From contig NZ_CP042911.1 of NCBI RefSeq assembly GCF_008065095.1, forward strand, positions 360,001 to 392,000: 32,000 bases of DNA, read 5' to 3'. Both the position numbers and the translations under genes were made by a program. This DNA is from Gemmata obscuriglobus. Its GTDB lineage: Bacteria > Planctomycetota > Planctomycetia > Gemmatales > Gemmataceae. Positions 17,947 through 32,000 of the stretch are shown piece after piece (within the stretch, counting starts at the first letter, position 1; each line of letters opens with the position of its first letter). A model generated the notes under the pieces. It saw nothing but the letters and a program-made list of their open reading frames with translations. It ran no database searches and was not told where the DNA came from.

Positions 17947-18007
17947 GCCGCCTTCTTGACGAGCCATTAACCGCCAGGGAGCGGTCGCGGCTCGTCAAGA
18001 AGGCGGC
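17947..18007. terminator. Perfect 19-bp hairpin between convergent genes
   Basis: gccgccttcttgacgagcc (17947-17965) and ggctcgtcaagaaggcggc (17989-18007) are exact reverse complements with a 23-nt loop. It lies between the glgC stop (17926) and the stop of the membrane protein gene (18079). Confidence 0.6.
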
Positions 18008-18078
18008 AATATTATCGGGTACGTGTATGAGGCGCCCCGCGCCCCGAGCGCGGCATCGTTTGCCCGGTCGGGGCACGG

Positions 18079-19959
18079 TCAGGCCGCGGGGCGCGGTTCG
18101 GCCGGCGTTGGAAGGGGCGCGAGCGCCGCGGCACCCCCAGCCGCCGGCCGGCGGAGCCGGTTGGCGAGCGGCGCGCACGCCACGATCAGCCCCCACCCCA
18201 CAAGCACCCCGTCGGCCGCCTGGCTCAGCACGCGCCACTTGCGCGGCGGGGTGAAGGCGTACTCGACCGTGTGCTCGCCGGCCGGCACGGGCACGGCGAC
18301 CCGCAGCGCCGCCGGACCGGTCGCGTACCGCGGGTCCTCCCAGACCCGCAGCTCCCACTCCGGCACGGGCGCGCCGTCCACACGGAACGTGCTCCAGCGG
18401 AACGGCACCGCCTGCGTGCCGGCGTAACCGGCGGCGGCGAAGGTGGTGCGCACCGGCCCCACCTCCCCCCACCGCTCTCCGGTGCCCACCGGGAACGCCA
18501 CGGCGTGGACCCGTGCGGTCTCGTCCGCCCGCAACGCGGACACGCAGTTCGGAGTAAAGTACGCCCAGCCCGCACCACAGTGGGTCGTTTCGATCCACCG
18601 CACGCGCGTCGCGCTGGCGTGCTCGGCCGACGTCTGTTTCCAGCCCGCGGCCCTCCCGTTCACGGACTTTTGCACCAACCCGCACGCCGCCAGGGTGAAC
18701 AGTACGGCGAGCGCCACCGCCCCCCCCGCCCACTCGTTCTGGGGCGCGGCCCCCGGGGCGGCGGCCCGGAACGCCAGCCCCAAGAGCAACAAGATCAGGA
18801 ACGCGATGTTGACGGTCGCGACCAGCCGGTACGCGAACTGGACCTTCCCGACGAGCGCCCGAGCCGCGGCGGGGAGCGCCGCATTAAGCTCGGGGCTGAC
18901 GGACAGCGCGAACACGAACAGCCCGAACAGCGCCACCGCGCCGGCGCCGGCGGCGAGGCGCCGGCGCGCGTGAGGGGCGGTGCGGTACGCGGACACCAGG
19001 GCCAGAACCGCCAGCCCCAAGAGGGGCAGGCTGACCTGCGTGTCGAGGTGAGGCGTCCCCAGGGCCGGGGCTCCCGGGGTCAGGTGGTTGTAGTCGAACG
19101 GGAGCGGGAACAGGCGGACCCAGACGAGCGTCCGGGCCGTTAAGCCGAGGTAGTCGGAATCCCCAGGCCCCCCGGCGGAGATCACGATTTGCGACCCGAG
19201 CCGGTGGTACGCGTACAGCCACGGGGCCAGCACCGCACACGTCAGCGCCGCCGCCGCCAGGACCGGCACGTGCCGCCGAACGAGGCCGCCGCGGCGCGCC
19301 GCCGGCACGCTCCAGTGCGCCACATAAATCAGCCCGACAACGGGAACGCTCAGCAACCCGGTGATCGGGTGGGTGGCCGCGGCCAGTGCGAGGCACAGAC
19401 CGGCCGCCAGTGCGGCCGGCCACCGCACCGCCGCGCCGGGGCGGAAAAAGAACTGCGCCCACAAGCAACAGGAGCAGGTGAGCATCGCGTTCGCGAAGAA
19501 CTCGGGCAACGCGGTGCGGCTGTACACGTTGGTGAGGCCGTAAGTGGCCCAGCAGACGGAGCAGGCGGTCGCCGTGGCGAACCACACCCCGGCCCCGAAC
19601 GCGCGCGCCGTTTGGCGGACCACCGGGTACGTGACCCCCAGGCTGAGCAAGACGATCAGCCGGAGGGCCACATGGCACCCCCACTGCGCGCTCAGCAGCC
19701 CGCCGAGCTTGTACAGCGGGCCGCCGTAGAAGACGGGGAGCGGCGTACCGACCTCGGGGGCCGAGTTGAACACGGGGGCGAACGACCGGGTCGCCTTCCA
19801 CGCCTCGCCCTGGTACCCCACCATCCAGGCGTGAACGTAATAATCCGTCCCGAAGCCGAGCGCCGGATCCCAGAGGACCAGCACCGGCGCGGACACCGCC
19901 ACGGCCCCGACAACAAGCGCGAGCACCGCCCGCCGCACGTTTGCCCGCCGTGATTCCAT
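18079..19959 (-). CDS. Polytopic membrane protein with a C-terminal extracytoplasmic domain (family not recognised; GT-C-like layout)
   Basis: I prefer the start at the internal ATG (cat 19957-19959; MESRRANVRRAVLALVVG...). The alternative start is 20016. About 12 hydrophobic segments span the first ~420 aa. A ~200-aa soluble tail follows, then a final hydrophobic segment (VLVGWGLIVACAPLA). Confidence 0.7.
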   Translation of the reverse strand: MESRRANVRRAVLALVVGAVAVSAPVLVLWDPALGFGTDYYVHAWMVGYQGEAWKATRSFAPVFNSAPEVGTPLPVFYGGPLYKLGGLLSAQWGCHVALRLIVLLSLGVTYPVVRQTARAFGAGVWFATATACSVCWATYGLTNVYSRTALPEFFANAMLTCSCCLWAQFFFRPGAAVRWPAALAAGLCLALAAATHPITGLLSVPVVGLIYVAHWSVPAARRGGLVRRHVPVLAAAALTCAVLAPWLYAYHRLGSQIVISAGGPGDSDYLGLTARTLVWVRLFPLPFDYNHLTPGAPALGTPHLDTQVSLPLLGLAVLALVSAYRTAPHARRRLAAGAGAVALFGLFVFALSVSPELNAALPAAARALVGKVQFAYRLVATVNIAFLILLLLGLAFRAAAPGAAPQNEWAGGAVALAVLFTLAACGLVQKSVNGRAAGWKQTSAEHASATRVRWIETTHCGAGWAYFTPNCVSALRADETARVHAVAFPVGTGERWGEVGPVRTTFAAAGYAGTQAVPFRWSTFRVDGAPVPEWELRVWEDPRYATGPAALRVAVPVPAGEHTVEYAFTPPRKWRVLSQAADGVLVGWGLIVACAPLANRLRRPAAGGAAALAPLPTPAEPRPAA

Positions 19960-20053
19960 TGAGAGCCTCCGCACCGCTTGCAGAAATCGGATAGAACGAG
20001 CGAACCGGAATACCATACGCCGGTGGGCCGGGGTACTCCAATTTCCGAGCCCG

Positions 20054-27227: not shown

Positions 27228-27272
27228 CTGCTCCGCGCGGCAAGAAACGGCCGTCCCCTTCGCGCGCTCCGA

Positions 27273-27303
27273 GAAACCGGTTGCAAGAACCGCGACCGGT
27301 TTC
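27273..27303 (+). terminator. Hairpin downstream of the beta-propeller gene
   Basis: gaaaccggt (27273-27281) pairs with accggtttc (27295-27303). The stem is 9 bp and perfect, with a 13-nt loop. It lies 46 nt after the stop. There is no U-tract. Confidence 0.4.
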
Positions 27304-27420
27304 CGGTGCCCACCTCACCGAATCCGATCACGCCCGGCGTGCGTAAATTGTTGTCGGTCCTGGCACGGCTATCGCACACAACCGGCATCCGATCCGCGGG
27401 CGCAAAATCCGAGAGGTGGA

Positions 27421-28686
27421 ATGTCCGAACTGCCCCCCCACGCTGCTGTCCGGACGGCTCTCGCCGCCCGGTTCTCCGCCGTTCGGGCCGAAACGGAGCG
27501 GCTCTGCGAGCCGCTCGCGGTCGAAGACTACCAACTTCAGTCGATGCCCGACTGTAGCCCGCCGAAGTGGCACCTGGCCCACACCGCCTGGTTCTTCGAG
27601 ACCTTCATACTTTCCGCACACGAGCCCGGCTCCCGTCCGTTCCACCCGCGGTTCAACTACCTGTTCAACTCGTACTACGACGCCGTCGGCGACCGCTGGC
27701 CCCGCGCGGCGCGGGGGCTGCTCTCCCGGCCGACCGTGGCCGAAATGTACGCGTACCGCGCCGCCGTCGATGAGCAAATCCTCGCGCTGATCGCGACCAC
27801 CGACGCGGGCACACTGACCGCAATCGCGCCGCTCGTCGAGTTGGGGCTGAACCATGAGCAACAGCACCAGGAGCTGCTCCTTACGGATCTGAAGCACGCA
27901 TTCGGCCTGAACCCGCTGCGGCCGGTGTACGCCGCACCGCAGGACGAGCAGCCGGACGCGCCCCCCGGGCCGACCCGGTGGGAACGGCACGCGGCGGGCG
28001 TGCGCCGGATCGGCCACACCTCCGCAGGGTTCGCCTTCGATAATGAGGGACCGGTCCACAGCGTGTACGTGAACGACTTCGAGATCGCGGCGCGCACGGT
28101 TAGTAACGGCGAGTTCTTGCGGTTCATTGAGGATGGCGGTTACGACCGCCCGGAGTTCTGGCTCTCCGACGGGTGGGCGGCCCGGCAGCGGAACGGCTGG
28201 ACCGCCCCGCTTTATTGGGAGCGTGACGGCGGCTCTTGGACGCAGTTTACGCTCCGCGGCCAGCGGGCGCTCAACCCGGACGAACCGGTGTGCCATGTAA
28301 GCTTCTACGAGGCCGACGCGTATGCCCGGTGGGCCGGCGCGCGGCTGCCCACCGAGCAGGAGTGGGAGGTCGCGGCCGGCGCGGGGCCGGTGGGCGGCAA
28401 CCTGCTCGATTCGGGGCGTTTGCACCCCGCGCCCGGCGGCGCGTCCTTCTACGGCGACGTGTGGGCGTGGACGGCCAGCCCGTACACCGCGTACCCCGGT
28501 TACCGGCCCGCGGCCGGCGCGATCGGCGAGTACAACGGCAAGTTCATGTGCAACCAGATGGTGCTCCGCGGAGGGTCGTGTGCGACCCCCGCCGGGCACG
28601 TCCGGCCGACGTACCGGAACTTCTTCCCGCCAGACGCCCGCTGGCAGTTCTCCGGCCTCCGACTCGCGAAGGACCTCTCCGCATGA
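27421..28686 (+). CDS. egtB: Ergothioneine biosynthesis sulfoxide synthase EgtB (DinB-like + FGE-sulfatase domains)
   Basis: 421 aa. N-terminal DinB_2-like region with PPKWHLAHTAWFFE and the iron-binding HX3HXE as NHEQQHQE. The C-terminal FGE-like domain has FAFDNEGPVH, VSNGEFLRFIEDGGY and VSFYEADAYARWAGARLPTEQEWE. Confidence 0.93.
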   Translation: MSELPPHAAVRTALAARFSAVRAETERLCEPLAVEDYQLQSMPDCSPPKWHLAHTAWFFETFILSAHEPGSRPFHPRFNYLFNSYYDAVGDRWPRAARGLLSRPTVAEMYAYRAAVDEQILALIATTDAGTLTAIAPLVELGLNHEQQHQELLLTDLKHAFGLNPLRPVYAAPQDEQPDAPPGPTRWERHAAGVRRIGHTSAGFAFDNEGPVHSVYVNDFEIAARTVSNGEFLRFIEDGGYDRPEFWLSDGWAARQRNGWTAPLYWERDGGSWTQFTLRGQRALNPDEPVCHVSFYEADAYARWAGARLPTEQEWEVAAGAGPVGGNLLDSGRLHPAPGGASFYGDVWAWTASPYTAYPGYRPAAGAIGEYNGKFMCNQMVLRGGSCATPAGHVRPTYRNFFPPDARWQFSGLRLAKDLSA

Positions 28687-29633
28687 CGAGCACCTGCGCC
28701 TCCCGACGGACGCACGATCAGTTCCGGGCGGACGTCCTTGCCGGACTGTCGCGGCCCCAGAAGCGGCTCCCGTCCAAATACTTCTACGACGCGGCCGGCT
28801 CGCAACTGTTCGACCGCATCACCGAGCTGCCCGAGTACTACCCCACGCGGACCGAACTGGCCGTGATGCGGGAGCACGCGGCGGCGATGGCCGCCCGGTG
28901 CGGGCCGCGGTGCCTGCTCGTCGAACTCGGCGCCGGCAGCTTGGTGAAGGTGCGGCTGCTCCTCGACGAACTGGTAGCCCCGGCGGGGTACGTCCCGGTG
29001 GACGTGTCCGGCGAGCACCTGCGCGGCGCCGCGCGGGAACTCGCCGCCGACTACCCCGGGCTCGGCGTTCACCCCGTGGTGGCGGACTTCACCCGGCCGT
29101 TCGAACTCCCGCCGGTGCCCGCGGCGCGGCGGGTGGTGTACTTCCCGGGGTCGACGATCGGCAACTTCGACCCAGCCGAGGCCGACGACCTCCTGGGGCG
29201 CGTCGCCCGGCTGGTCGGGCCGGGCGGCGGGCTGCTCCTGGGCATCGACCTGCGTAAGGACACCGCCGTCCTGGAGCCCGCGTACAACGACGCCCGCGGC
29301 GTGACCGCGGCGTTCAACCGGAACCTGCTGGTCCGCATCAACCGCGAGTTGGGCGCCGACTTCGACCCGGCCGCGTTCCGCCACCGGGCGTTCTACAACC
29401 ACGAGCGGTCCCGGATCGAGATGCACCTCGTGAGCGCCGCCGAGCAGCGGGTGCAGATGGGCGGCGCGACGTTCGCCTTCCGCGCCGGCGAGTCGATCCA
29501 CACCGAGAACTCGTACAAATACGCCCCGACCGAGTTCGCCCAGCGGGCCGCCGCGTGCGGGCTGCGCGCGGACGCGACCTGGACCGACGCGAACGGCTTT
29601 TTCGCCGTGATGCACCTGACCGCCGTACCCTGA
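28683..29633 (+). CDS. egtD: L-histidine N-alpha-methyltransferase EgtD
   Basis: The internal ATG at 28683 overlaps the egtB stop (ATGA, 28683-28686). KYFYDAAGSQLFDRITELPEYYPTRTE and LVELGAGS (SAM motif I) are EgtD hallmarks. 316 aa. Confidence 0.92.
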   Translation: MTSTCASRRTHDQFRADVLAGLSRPQKRLPSKYFYDAAGSQLFDRITELPEYYPTRTELAVMREHAAAMAARCGPRCLLVELGAGSLVKVRLLLDELVAPAGYVPVDVSGEHLRGAARELAADYPGLGVHPVVADFTRPFELPPVPAARRVVYFPGSTIGNFDPAEADDLLGRVARLVGPGGGLLLGIDLRKDTAVLEPAYNDARGVTAAFNRNLLVRINRELGADFDPAAFRHRAFYNHERSRIEMHLVSAAEQRVQMGGATFAFRAGESIHTENSYKYAPTEFAQRAAACGLRADATWTDANGFFAVMHLTAVP

Positions 29634-29653
29634 ACCTTTTCACGGAGATCGTC

Positions 29654-29938
29654 GTGCCGAAAGCAGTTTGGAACGGGGCCGTGCTGGCCGAGTCCGGGGA
29701 CACGGTCGTGGTCGAGGGCAACCACTACTTCCCGGCGAGCGCGATCCGCGCGGAGTTCTTCAAGCCGAGCGCCACGCACACCGTCTGCGGGTGGAAGGGC
29801 ACGGCCAGTTACTACACCATCGAGGTGAACGGGCAGCAGAACCCGGACGCCGCGTGGTACTACCCGGAGCCGAAGGACGCGGCGAAGGAGATCGCCGGGC
29901 GGGTGGCGTTCTGGAAGGGCGTCCAGTTGGAGTGGTGA
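29654..29938 (+). CDS. DUF427 domain protein (94 aa)
   Basis: GTG at 29654 is preceded by ggag (29644-29647). AVWNGAVLAES..TVVVEGNHYFP...C.WKG.ASYY....NG....AAWYYPEP resembles DUF427 family members as I recall them. It starts 20 nt after egtD and ends 7 nt before the ABC ATPase. Confidence 0.75.
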   Translation: MPKAVWNGAVLAESGDTVVVEGNHYFPASAIRAEFFKPSATHTVCGWKGTASYYTIEVNGQQNPDAAWYYPEPKDAAKEIAGRVAFWKGVQLEW

Positions 29939-29945
29939 CGGCGCG

Positions 29946-30683
29946 ATGTTTCGACTCACGGACGTGACCAAGGTGTACGCCGGGCGCCCGGCCCTGGGGC
30001 CGCTCGCGCTCGACGTGCCGGCCGGGCGCACGACGGTGCTGATCGGCCCGAGCGGGTGCGGGAAGTCCACGCTCGTCCGGCTGCTGGTCGGGCTGGTCGA
30101 ACCGGACGCCGGCGCCGTCATGTTCAACGGCACGCCCGTCACGCCGGCCACGGCCCGCGCGGTGCGGCTGCGCACCGGGTACGTCATCCAGGACGGCGGG
30201 CTGTTCCCGCACCTGACCGCGCGGGGGAACGTGACCTTGATGGCCCGCCACCTCGGCTGGGACCGCACGCGGATCGCGGCGCGGGTGGGTGAACTGGCCG
30301 ACCTCACCCGCTTCCCGGCGGACGGACTGGACCGCTACCCGCAGCAGCTCTCCGGCGGTCAGCGGCAGCGGGTCGGCCTGATGCGCGCCCTCATGCTCGA
30401 CCCGGACGCGCTGCTCCTCGACGAGCCGCTCGGCGCGCTCGACCCGCTCGTGCGGGCGGACCTCCAGGGCGAGCTGCGCGACATCTTCCGGGCGCTCGGC
30501 AAGACGGTGGTGCTCGTGACCCACGACCTCGGCGAGGCCGTGTTCTTCGCGGACCGCATCGTCCTGTTGCGCGACGGGCAGATCGTTCAACAGGGGAGCG
30601 CGGCGGACCTGTGGCACCGCCCCGCGGACCCGTTCGTCACGACGTTCGTACAGGCCCAGCGCGGGCCGGAGGTGCCCGCGTGA
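29946..30683 (+). CDS. ABC transporter ATP-binding protein (osmoprotectant/quaternary-amine OpuC/EgtV-like, no CBS domains)
   Basis: 245 aa. Walker A GPSGCGKST, Q-loop, signature LSGGQRQRV, Walker B LLLDEP and the H-loop VTHD are all present. Confidence 0.92.
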   Translation: MFRLTDVTKVYAGRPALGPLALDVPAGRTTVLIGPSGCGKSTLVRLLVGLVEPDAGAVMFNGTPVTPATARAVRLRTGYVIQDGGLFPHLTARGNVTLMARHLGWDRTRIAARVGELADLTRFPADGLDRYPQQLSGGQRQRVGLMRALMLDPDALLLDEPLGALDPLVRADLQGELRDIFRALGKTVVLVTHDLGEAVFFADRIVLLRDGQIVQQGSAADLWHRPADPFVTTFVQAQRGPEVPA

Positions 30684-32000
30684 CGCGCCAGCTGCCCGCA
30701 TTCGTGTGCGCGGCCCTGGCCGCGACGGTCGCCCTCGTCCCCGGTTGCTCGCCGGCGGCGCAGAGGCCGGTCGTGATCGGGTCGAAGAAGTTCACCGAGT
30801 CGGTGATTCTGGCGGAGATGGGAACGCAACTCGCCCGCGCCGGCGGGGCCGAGGCCCGGCGCGACGACCTTGGCGGCACCCCGGCGCTGTGGCTCGCACT
30901 CACGCAGGGCGACATCGACGCGTACCCCGAGTACACGGGGACCATCACCCGGCAGATCCTCAAAGACGACCCGCCGGACCTCGCCGCGGCGCTCGCGGCG
31001 CAGGGCGTCCGGATCAGCAAGCCGCTCGGGTTCCGCAACAACTACGCGCTCGGGATGCGGAAGGACGTGGCCGCCGCGAAGGGCGTGCGGAGTATCTCGT
31101 ACCTGCGGCAGCACCCGGAACTGCGGTGCGGGTTCATTCACGAGTTCCTCGACCGCCCCGACGGGTGGCCCGGCGTCAAGCGGCACTACGACCTGCCGCA
31201 AACGGACGTGCGCGGGATGAACCATACGCTCGCGTACCGGGCGCTCGTCGAGCGGGCGATCGACGTGACCGAGGTGTACACCACCGACGGCGAGATCGCC
31301 CAGTACGACCTGCTCGTGCTCGACGACGACCGCAACTTCTTCCCGGCCTACGAAGCGGTCTGGCTATACCGCGCGGACCTGGAATCGCGGCACCCCAAGG
31401 CGGTCGAGCAACTGCGGCGGCTCGAAGGGCGCGTCACCGAACCGCAGATGCAGCGGATGAACAGCCTGGCGCAAGGCGAGCAGAAGAAGGACGAGCGCGA
31501 GGTCGCCGGCGAGTTCCTGACCCAGACCTTGGGGGTTACGGCCGGGGCAACGGCCGAGCCGGGCGACGGGACGCTCGCCGGGCGCGTGCTGGAGACGACG
31601 CGCGAGCACCTCAAGCTGGTGCTGCCGTCGCTGCTCGCGGCGGTGCTGGTCGCGGTGCCGCTCGGCGTACTCGCCGCCCGGCGGCCGGCGCTCGGACGGG
31701 TCGCGCTCGGCGCGACCGGCGTGCTTCAGACGGTCCCGTCGCTGGCGCTCCTGCTGTTCATGATCCCGGTGATGAAGTGGCTCGTCGACGAGGGGACGGG
31801 GCCGGCCCCCGCGATCGCGGCGCTGTTCCTGTACAGCCTGCTGCCGATCGTCCGGAACGCGCACGCCGGGCTGACGAGCATTCCCGCCCCCCTGCGCGAG
31901 TCGGCCGCGGCGCTGGGGCTCTCCCCGTGGGCGATCCTGTGGCGGATCGAGTTGCCGCTCGCGGCGCCGACGATCCTCGCAGGCGTGCGCACCGCGGCCG
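30680..32000 (+). CDS. Fusion of a lipoprotein-type quaternary-amine substrate-binding domain (OpuBC/OpuCC-like) with an ABC permease; 3'-truncated by the window edge
   Basis: This ORF is not in the supplied track because no stop occurs before the window end. I translated it by hand from the GTG at 30680, which overlaps the ATPase stop (GTGA). VTRQLPAFVCAALAATVALVPGCSP is a lipobox. VVIGSKKFTESVILAEMG and GDIDAYPEYTGTI are typical of PF04069-type betaine/choline binders. From about 31600 it has TM helices and the permease region (LQTVPSLALLLFMIP.., LYSLLPIVRN, ESAAALGLSPWAILWRIELPLAAPTILAGVRTA). Confidence 0.85.
   Translation, partial: MTRQLPAFVCAALAATVALVPGCSPAAQRPVVIGSKKFTESVILAEMGTQLARAGGAEARRDDLGGTPALWLALTQGDIDAYPEYTGTITRQILKDDPPDLAAALAAQGVRISKPLGFRNNYALGMRKDVAAAKGVRSISYLRQHPELRCGFIHEFLDRPDGWPGVKRHYDLPQTDVRGMNHTLAYRALVERAIDVTEVYTTDGEIAQYDLLVLDDDRNFFPAYEAVWLYRADLESRHPKAVEQLRRLEGRVTEPQMQRMNSLAQGEQKKDEREVAGEFLTQTLGVTAGATAEPGDGTLAGRVLETTREHLKLVLPSLLAAVLVAVPLGVLAARRPALGRVALGATGVLQTVPSLALLLFMIPVMKWLVDEGTGPAPAIAALFLYSLLPIVRNAHAGLTSIPAPLRESAAALGLSPWAILWRIELPLAAPTILAGVRTAA

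Follow-up and report, generated by a model that had tools for sequence, protein, structure and literature searches.

The window analysed here is a 32,000-nt stretch of Gemmata obscuriglobus DNA, whose last part, from position 27421 to the window end, is occupied by five same-strand genes arranged head to tail: egtB and egtD of ergothioneine synthesis, a gene for a DUF427 protein, a gene for an ATP-binding cassette (ABC) ATPase, and a gene that fuses a substrate-binding domain (SBD) to a permease or transmembrane domain (TMD). The features of this cassette, in window coordinates, are the following.

27228..27420, + strand: 5' intergenic region of 193 nt, presumed promoter and leader, the sole sizeable gap in the gene run
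27421..28686, + strand: egtB, type II sulfoxide synthase, 421 amino acids (aa); TIGR03440, with DinB_2 and FGE-sulfatase domains
28683..29633, + strand: egtD, S-adenosylmethionine-dependent histidine N-alpha-trimethyltransferase, 316 aa; TIGR03438, PF10017
29654..29938, + strand: DUF427 (PF04248) protein of beta-tent fold, 94 aa; GTG start with GGAG 7 nt upstream
29946..30683, + strand: ABC ATP-binding subunit, 245 aa; PF00005 (ABC_tran) as sole domain
30680..30748, + strand: signal peptide of the fusion protein, hydrophobic segment at aa 5-23, with a lipobox-like LVPGC, ending at Cys23
30764..31525, + strand: periplasmic substrate-binding domain of cluster F-III type, called class A below; OpuAC, PF04069
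31616..32000 (window end), + strand: permease domain, BPD_transp_1; PF00528 at aa 325-439

The stop codon of egtB and the start codon of egtD share ATGA (28683-28686), 20 nt separate egtD from the DUF427 gene, 7 nt separate the latter from the ATPase gene, and the ATPase stop shares GTGA (30680-30683) with the start of the fusion gene; the first-pass annotation of this DNA had described five co-directional genes with these overlaps and gaps, and its coordinates and junctions proved exact to the base. Immediately 5' of the egtB ATG stands GAGAGGTGG, and no Rfam family was matched in a scan of the whole window, in which a riboswitch or leader upstream of egtB was sought. The fusion gene ends about 191 nt past the window; its full length is 503 aa (L001 10735-12246, ABGO01000189.1), and in this contig of strain UQM 2246 the next genes downstream encode an alpha/beta hydrolase and a convergent peptidyl-prolyl isomerase. 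The identical five-gene order is found in Planctomyces sp. SH-PL62, Paludisphaera soli, Fimbriiglobus ruber and Zavarzinella formosa, with differing flanks, and the cassette is kept in Gemmataceae and Isosphaeraceae; close homologues of the fusion protein (75-83% identity) occur throughout Gemmatales and Isosphaerales. Because the flanking genes differ between families, we delimit the cassette as egtB through the fusion gene. An upstream pyrroloquinoline quinone (PQQ) beta-propeller gene and a downstream esterase gene were considered as further members and rejected, neither adjoining the cassette in the four other Planctomycetes.

Judged from this arrangement, the five genes most likely form one conserved cassette and a single operon. 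The alternative that their adjacency is incidental, i.e., that separate transcription units merely neighbour each other in Gemmata, draws on a consensus scan of the cassette and downstream sequence that mapped neither a sigma-70-like promoter nor a usable terminator, Planctomycete promoters lying outside the consensus; this null result also counts against a single operon. Two four-nucleotide start/stop overlaps, gaps of 7 and 20 nt, an identical order with differing flanks in at least five other Planctomycete genomes, and the reappearance of the linkage in other phyla make incidental adjacency hardly credible.

The window EgtB scores 579 bits against TIGR03440 (cut-off 360) and is 63% identical (578 bits) to the EgtB of Chloracidobacterium thermophilum (6o6l), with H51, H145 and H149 of the HX3H motif region identical in both enzymes. 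The type I EgtB of M. thermoresistibile (4x8b) gives 151 bits, EgtB-IV 88 bits, the SenA structure 113 bits, and the SenA model 375 bits, under its cut-off of 420. On these scores the Gemmata enzyme is a type II EgtB, closer to that kind than to type I, EgtB-IV or SenA, and it was likewise placed nearer to type II than to OvoA. EgtD scores 417 bits against TIGR03438 (cut-off 290.9), matches PF10017 (Methyltransf_33) over residues 14-313 of 316 (E 2.7e-115) and matches M. smegmatis EgtD (4pim) at E 7e-72. EgtD converts histidine to hercynine by trimethylation, and type II EgtB combines hercynine with free L-cysteine and O2 to give hercynylcysteine sulfoxide. The 63% identity and the absence of egtA and egtC point to free L-cysteine as the sulfur donor of the Gemmata enzyme as well; since a type II EgtB takes free cysteine, egtA and egtC are not expected. 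No egtA, egtC or egtE-like gene is present within the window, as first annotated, and when a related cluster's class-V aminotransferase served as tblastn query, no EgtE-like lyase turned up in the window or in the examined Planctomycete flanks. A C-S lyase encoded elsewhere would have to complete the pathway. There is nothing unusual in the short EgtB/EgtD pathway proposed in the first-pass annotation: it corresponds to the known type II route.

The last two genes have the anatomy of an importer. The best NCBIfam model for the ATPase is that of the proV betaine/proline/choline subfamily (220 bits, under its cut-off), and the protein carries neither a CBS domain nor any other regulatory extension. 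A CBS module gates OpuA-type osmoregulated importers, and its absence fits a transporter that is not gated by osmotic strength. In the fusion protein, Cys23 of the lipobox-like motif stands where the PDB chain of A. fulgidus ProX has its Cys1, the OpuAC domain covers aa 30-282 (PF04069, E 3.6e-56) and includes GDIDAYPEYTGT, and hydropathy places the first transmembrane segment at aa 313-331. This bears out the earlier description of a lipoprotein-type binding domain fused to a permease, binding domain first. In the predicted topology, the binding domain is periplasmic and leads into a five-helix permease with its N-terminus outside.

Homologous transporters follow egtBD in Verrucomicrobiota, Thermodesulfobacteriota, Gammaproteobacteria and unclassified metagenome-assembled genomes (MAGs). 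For a wider search, a profile was built from non-Planctomycete members only and the contigs of seven diverse matches, with SBDs 42-51% identical to that of Gemmata, were inspected; together with four Planctomycetes this makes 11 class-A relatives. Ten of the 11 lie in egtBD clusters; the contig of the eleventh stops short. Four of the seven non-Planctomycete contigs have the order 133-aa acidic protein, egtB, egtD, ATPase, fusion; one has a flavin adenine dinucleotide (FAD) disulfide reductase, egtB, egtD, ATPase, fusion; and one has egtB, egtD, DUF427, an extracytoplasmic function (ECF) sigma factor, a YCII protein, ATPase, fusion. The last contig ends in a gene with a DUF6596 domain, which belongs to the ECF sigma factor of the sixth layout, and it matches that layout. 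The possibility raised against the first-pass hypothesis, that the neighbourhood might fail to be conserved beyond this genome, was examined in this way, and the hypothesis survived, both through the Planctomycete cassette and through the other phyla.

A second transporter class was encountered beside egtBD in loci L030, L062, L137, L147 and L160. In this different ABC system, class B, the permease comes first, the ATPase has 306-331 aa, and the OpuAC domain, 33-39% identical to that of class A, shows a circular permutation when compared with ProX. Its recorded positions are as follows.

L160:9679-12167, L137:9706-12190, L030:13282-15839 and L062:13115-15612: class-B transporters

In L160, a tight run on one strand encodes a class-V aminotransferase (SufS/EgtE-like), DUF427, an FAD disulfide reductase, the ATPase, a TMD-SBD protein, EgtB (527 bits against TIGR03440) and EgtD. 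It appears that class B was recruited to egtBD clusters independently of class A. Since two unrelated lineages of betaine-type ABC transporters have been recruited into ergothioneine clusters, the transported compound probably belongs to the pathway.

We favour, with moderate confidence, the view that the cassette is a single operon that makes ergothioneine and imports a betaine of that pathway, DUF427 being an accessory. EgtD would make hercynine, and the type II EgtB would join it to cysteine with O2. To judge from its anatomy, the fusion protein would form with the ATPase a binding-protein-dependent ABC importer, in which a lipid-anchored periplasmic SBD with a four-tyrosine quaternary-amine cage precedes the five-helix permease, and which the 245-aa ATPase, free of osmosensing CBS domains, would energise. 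To judge from the genomic context, the cargo may be ergothioneine and/or hercynine, either regained once it has leaked out or been oxidised, or picked up from the soil. For DUF427 the likeliest role is the handling of ergothioneine or of one of its redox forms, perhaps in partnership with a flavoprotein disulfide reductase. The substrate of the transporter is most likely ergothioneine or hercynine, with glycine betaine as the main rival. The coupling of synthesis to a dedicated quaternary-amine transporter, which the first-pass annotation had put forward, gains considerable support from the transporter-centred sampling and from the second recruited class.

Several observations weigh against this reading, and the first of them come from a sampling that starts at egtB. 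One genome per GTDB species was searched with a profile made from the EgtB of the window and that of C. thermophilum, and the 80 best-matching type-II loci, from many phyla, were retained; percentages drawn from them describe a sample and not a census. Neighbours were scored by tblastn and phmmer with the window proteins. In this sample egtD adjoins egtB in 63 of the 80 loci listed. A betaine-type ABC system (ATPase plus SBD/TMD) stands directly beside egtBD in 10 of them, or in 6 of 49 when the count is restricted to loci with at least 4 kb on either side, and this linkage speaks for the reading that we favour. What weighs against it is that about 88% of the sampled type-II egtBD loci are without the transporter and about 91% without DUF427; because most have neither, both are dispensable for synthesis. 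The other observations come from the binding pocket. The best PDB match of the binding domain is A. fulgidus ProX (AfProX; 1sw2, E 5.6e-42), followed by SpEgtUC of S. pneumoniae (7txk, E 2e-39), and with 38% identity to ProX and 36% to EgtUC the domain is about equally distant from both. At the positions of G244, F293 and Y337 (pocket residues are numbered by SpEgtUC unless marked ProX), Gemmata has F, Y and F, which are the residues of the glycine-betaine-binding AfProX. It has been reported that G244 and the F293/Y337 'Y-to-F switch' distinguish EgtU from ProX (Zhang et al., PMC9732360), and that in SpEgtUC G244F lowers the ergothioneine affinity about 100-fold and F293Y about 10-fold (PMC9732360).

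The same egtB-centred sample nevertheless extends the linkage beyond Planctomycetes. Within that phylum, the ABC-linked egtBD loci belong to a Gemmataceae MAG, a Schlesneria (contig cut) and a Phycisphaerales (contig cut), and elsewhere to a Thermodesulfobacteriota MAG, Ca. Methylumidiphilus, two Chthoniobacterales MAGs, a Balneolaceae MAG and two unclassified bacteria. The Gemmataceae MAG (L006) and the Schlesneria MAG (L029, whose contig ends after the ATPase gene) have the Gemmata gene order, and the ATPases beside egtBD in other phyla are 56-62% identical to that of Gemmata. All-against-all clustering returned three recurrent neighbours that are not lineage-specific, namely the ABC system, DUF427 and an FAD pyridine-nucleotide disulfide oxidoreductase. 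It is worth adding that locus L114 (2414-7315) is rearranged, with egtB, ATPase, SBD/TMD and DUF427 in this order and egtD directly after on the opposite strand, the parts staying together despite the shuffling.

The pocket also bears on the rival already named, in which the transporter would be an ordinary glycine betaine/proline betaine osmoprotectant importer, AfProX-like, placed with egtBD in a stress-induced operon. Besides the best PDB match and the F/Y/F residues, which are found in all class-A and most class-B egt-linked proteins (among 120 diverse class-A relatives, F244 in 119, Y293 in 120 and F337 in 120), the ProX-type cage of Y63, Y111, Y190 and Y214 and the carboxylate ligands K13, T66 and R149 are all kept in Gemmata, database names read glycine betaine or osmoprotectant transporter, and an aldehyde dehydrogenase gene lies 3' of the transporter in three Verrucomicrobia loci. 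It would however be very unexpected for a generic osmolyte importer to sit nearly always in egtBD clusters across phyla, as 10 of the 11 inspected relatives do, and the second, unrelated betaine-ABC class in the same clusters, the pocket mouth described below and an ATPase devoid of the CBS module of OpuA-type importers also speak against it. We consider an ordinary osmoprotectant importer unlikely, while granting it more weight than any other rival discussed here.

Two positions at the pocket mouth set the subfamily apart: where SpEgtUC has P401 (ProX P172), all 120 class-A relatives of the tally carry H, and where it has I243 (ProX P14), 102 of them carry K. The pocket signature KKF..Y..F-N-Y..E-R..H..Y-Y is common to 102 of the 120, which come from other phyla. 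Class B has the cage and F244, Y293 and F337 as in class A and is without K243 and H401. In EgtU structures the I243 and P401 positions are those that approach the thione sulfur most closely (PMC12922746). Since N-H donors replace two apolar contacts at the pocket mouth, the ligand probably exceeds glycine betaine in size and polarity, and the Lys and His suggest a solution to recognition that differs from that of EgtU. The EgtU-type residues K242, N339, Y341, E375, R379, D381, Y419 and Y443 are all kept in the Gemmata domain. Judged by the determinants published for SpEgtUC, the Gemmata transporter is not an EgtU; its assignment to the EgtUV class in the first-pass annotation does not hold in the strict sense, given the reversed domain order and F/Y/F for G244/F293/Y337.

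The third gene of the cassette encodes a clear member of its family (PF04248, 116 bits against a cut-off of 22.1, E 6.5e-34). Its AlphaFold2 model (predicted local distance difference test score, pLDDT, 96.8) has a TM-score of 0.86 to 3djm at 31-33% sequence identity, and a Foldseek search with the model returned no characterised relative, the matches being 3djm and then generic beta-tent folds (yippee, and the C-terminal domains of LGP2 and RIG-I). The fold belongs to the beta-tent class and has no zinc site, as described for DUF427 (PMC4287342). Invariant positions are C45, W47, K48, G49, W68, Y70 and P73, comprising a lone cysteine in C-x-W-K-G and the motif A-W-x-Y-x-x-P, and the protein surface is rich in aromatic residues. 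To our knowledge no DUF427 member has an assigned function.

An iterative profile search through the 1.27 Mb of the 80 egtB loci retrieved just seven DUF427 open reading frames, none of them more than 1.82 kb from egtBD and five no more than 221 bp away; under uniform placement, the chance that all seven fall in this near zone is about 6e-4. The association with egtBD noticed at first is, on this count, a strong enrichment. A metagenome scan was made for the closest DUF427 relatives (64-86% identity), and its 80 best matches were taken as a sample, again not a census. Among those listed, 20 of 80 (about 25%) are egt-linked, and egtD is among the clustered neighbours in 19 DUF427 loci, lying upstream with a median distance of 19 bp. 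Because the linked EgtBs include divergent ones (some are 27-49% identical to Gemmata EgtB), the association extends beyond a single EgtB lineage. A point to be set against an ergothioneine role is that 20 of the 25 listed relatives with at least 3 kb on either side are not egt-linked. DUF427 appears to be an accessory protein whose tie to ergothioneine genes is frequent but not constant.

The direct neighbours of DUF427 in the metagenome loci include an RclA/MerA-like FAD disulfide reductase downstream (n=8), a class-V aminotransferase upstream (n=5) and a short-chain dehydrogenase, which adjoins it in seven loci. In several unrelated clusters, DUF427, egtBD or both directly adjoin a gene for a class-I FAD pyridine-nucleotide disulfide oxidoreductase, and the class-V aminotransferase lies directly 5' of DUF427.

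L051:12300-13670, L075:2784-4193, L072:7590-8978, L174:2435-3889, L160:8296-9678 and L147:1956-3338: FAD disulfide oxidoreductase
L160:6702-7871, L137:6763-7932 and L147:439-1608 (also in L115 and L163): class-V aminotransferase directly 5' of DUF427

The best models for the oxidoreductase are 'PRK06370 FAD-containing oxidoreductase', RclA and a MerA-like hypothiocyanous acid (HOSCN) reductase, all under their cut-offs, and the protein is a candidate reductase for oxidised ergothioneine; neither the window nor the examined Planctomycete flanks yielded an FAD disulfide reductase. The aminotransferase is SufS-like, scores 111 bits, under cut-off, against the EgtE model TIGR04343, and is encoded on the same strand as egtB and egtD in L137 and L160; it is possibly the C-S lyase of the type II pathway.

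These partners bear on the first-pass suggestion that DUF427 might fill an unassigned step of the pathway. In its strongest form, DUF427 would be a missing core enzyme that replaces EgtE and converts hercynylcysteine sulfoxide to ergothioneine; its position directly after egtD in many loci, its one invariant cysteine and the lack of an egtE-like gene in the window or the Planctomycete flanks would fit such a role. A 94-aa beta-tent protein that matches no cofactor-binding family and has no characterised structural relative is however a poor candidate for a lyase, about 91% of the sampled type-II egtBD loci manage without it, where contigs are long most of its close relatives lack a link to egt genes, and in L137, L147 and L160 the adjoining SufS/EgtE-kind aminotransferase means that a pyridoxal phosphate (PLP) lyase is already there. 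We hold a lyase role to be quite improbable; absent from most egtBD loci and co-occurring with an EgtE-like PLP enzyme in some clusters, DUF427 is not well placed for the unassigned step. Its partners speak for a function in thiol or redox handling, not for the lyase step that is missing.

It is tempting to go further and to speculate that many producers own a hitherto overlooked 'maintenance module', made of a dedicated re-uptake importer for ergothioneine or hercynine, whose pocket would have evolved independently of EgtU, and of DUF427 as an ergothioneine-specific handling or redox protein working with an RclA/MerA-like reductase. The importer would offer N-H donors of Lys and His where EgtU uses C-H...S contacts, and DUF427 would act through its invariant cysteine. 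We offer this extension tentatively and regard it as a good deal less probable than the coupling of synthesis and import that we favour; if true, it would provide a first function for DUF427 and a bacterial ergothioneine recycling system.

A few observations concern the clusters of other phyla. In L175 (3851-5757) and L173 (66-839), from one lineage, the ECF-type sigma factor (DUF6596) and the YCII protein are inserted between DUF427 and the ATPase, which hints at a dedicated regulation of the cluster. Just 5' of the ergothioneine cluster of L160 (2207-5242) lie genes for a copper-type P1B ATPase with an HMA domain and for an AraC regulator; together with the RclA-like reductase, these suggest a link to copper or oxidant stress. 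In Verrucomicrobia-type clusters a conserved acidic protein of 130-133 aa without Pfam match is encoded directly 5' of egtB; the idea that this 133-aa protein is a diverged DUF427 was rejected, hmmsearch being negative. Three Verrucomicrobia clusters have the aldehyde dehydrogenase gene 3' of the transporter. One relative, P0243, encoded on a 5.2-kb contig, has OpuAC and BPD_transp_1 domains in 813 aa, some 300 aa more than the others, and may be a further fusion, e.g., with the ATPase.

L170:3555-3956, L171:3357-3758, L172:3557-3949, L176:3448-3849, L079:9447-9899 and L083:9556-9960: acidic protein

With respect to the Gemmata DNA itself, contigs identical to the cassette are present in at least 20 public sequencing runs, including L002-L005 (Logan assemblies SRR5887510, SRR5887613, SRR5887567 and SRR9494610). 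Away from the cassette, positions 18001-20000 of the window reach a G+C content of 0.75, compared with about 0.67 elsewhere, with a strongly positive AT skew (0.18-0.33) and long overlapping open reading frames on both strands.

Studies of ergothioneine transport in bacteria have so far dealt with non-producers (e.g., S. pneumoniae, H. pylori), and we know of no ergothioneine exporter or recycling enzyme identified in bacterial producers. Our literature searches found nothing relevant on a producer-encoded ergothioneine transporter and, in the searchable literature, no link of DUF427 to ergothioneine, whether through egtBD or through a flavoprotein reductase. The transporter subfamily described here, nearly always inside egtBD operons in several phyla and marked by the signature KKF...H401, is a candidate producer-side importer of ergothioneine or hercynine and may represent a second structural solution beside EgtU. 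Likewise, the links of DUF427 to egtBD, to a flavoprotein disulfide reductase and to an EgtE-like enzyme provide a first functional lead for a widespread domain. With the same markers, ergothioneine metabolism could be predicted better from soil and aquatic metagenomes, and they may serve production strains, where re-uptake cuts yield.

Among known systems, the closest for synthesis is the two-gene EgtD/type II EgtB pathway of C. thermophilum, also found in Methylobacterium, Burkholderia and cyanobacteria; with an EgtB 63% identical to the C. thermophilum enzyme, the Gemmata pair differs from it in being extended by DUF427 (about 9% of sampled loci) and an ABC importer (about 12%). For DUF427 itself the likeness is one of fold, shared with 3djm, a structural genomics protein of Rhodobacter sphaeroides, and with the beta-tent proteins MsrB, CULT, yippee and the RIG-I C-terminal domain.

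For import, EgtU/EgtUV (S. pneumoniae SPD_1642-1643 and H. pylori; formerly OpuF, BilE) likewise consists of an ATPase and a permease/binding-domain fusion of cluster F-III; the first-pass annotation had mentioned such a fusion from non-producers, in agreement with PMC9732360 and PMC12922746. Shared features are the aromatic cage with its Asn base (N339), the K242/R379 carboxylate clamp, E375 and D381. The order is TMD-SBD in EgtU, whereas the Gemmata fusion is SBD-TMD (SBD at aa 30-282, TMD from aa 313); G244, F293, Y337, I243 and P401 of EgtU become F, Y, F, K and H; and EgtU is found in non-producers while the Gemmata transporter is encoded inside a producer's biosynthetic operon. A. fulgidus ProX, which binds glycine betaine and proline betaine, has its lipoprotein cysteine at the equivalent position and shares with the Gemmata domain the cage, K13, T66, R149 and F15/F107, but ProX is a free binding protein whereas the Gemmata domain is fused to a permease, ProX D109, P14 and P172 are replaced by N, K and H, and the genomic context is ergothioneine synthesis rather than osmoprotection. 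The nearest functional parallels are presumably the recapture importers of producers, TeaABC for ectoine in Halomonas elongata (a tripartite ATP-independent periplasmic, TRAP, system) and GgtABCD for glucosylglycerol in Synechocystis (a sugar ABC system). The logic would be the same, the producer's own importer recovering leaked product, but the families and solutes differ and the analogy is functional only.

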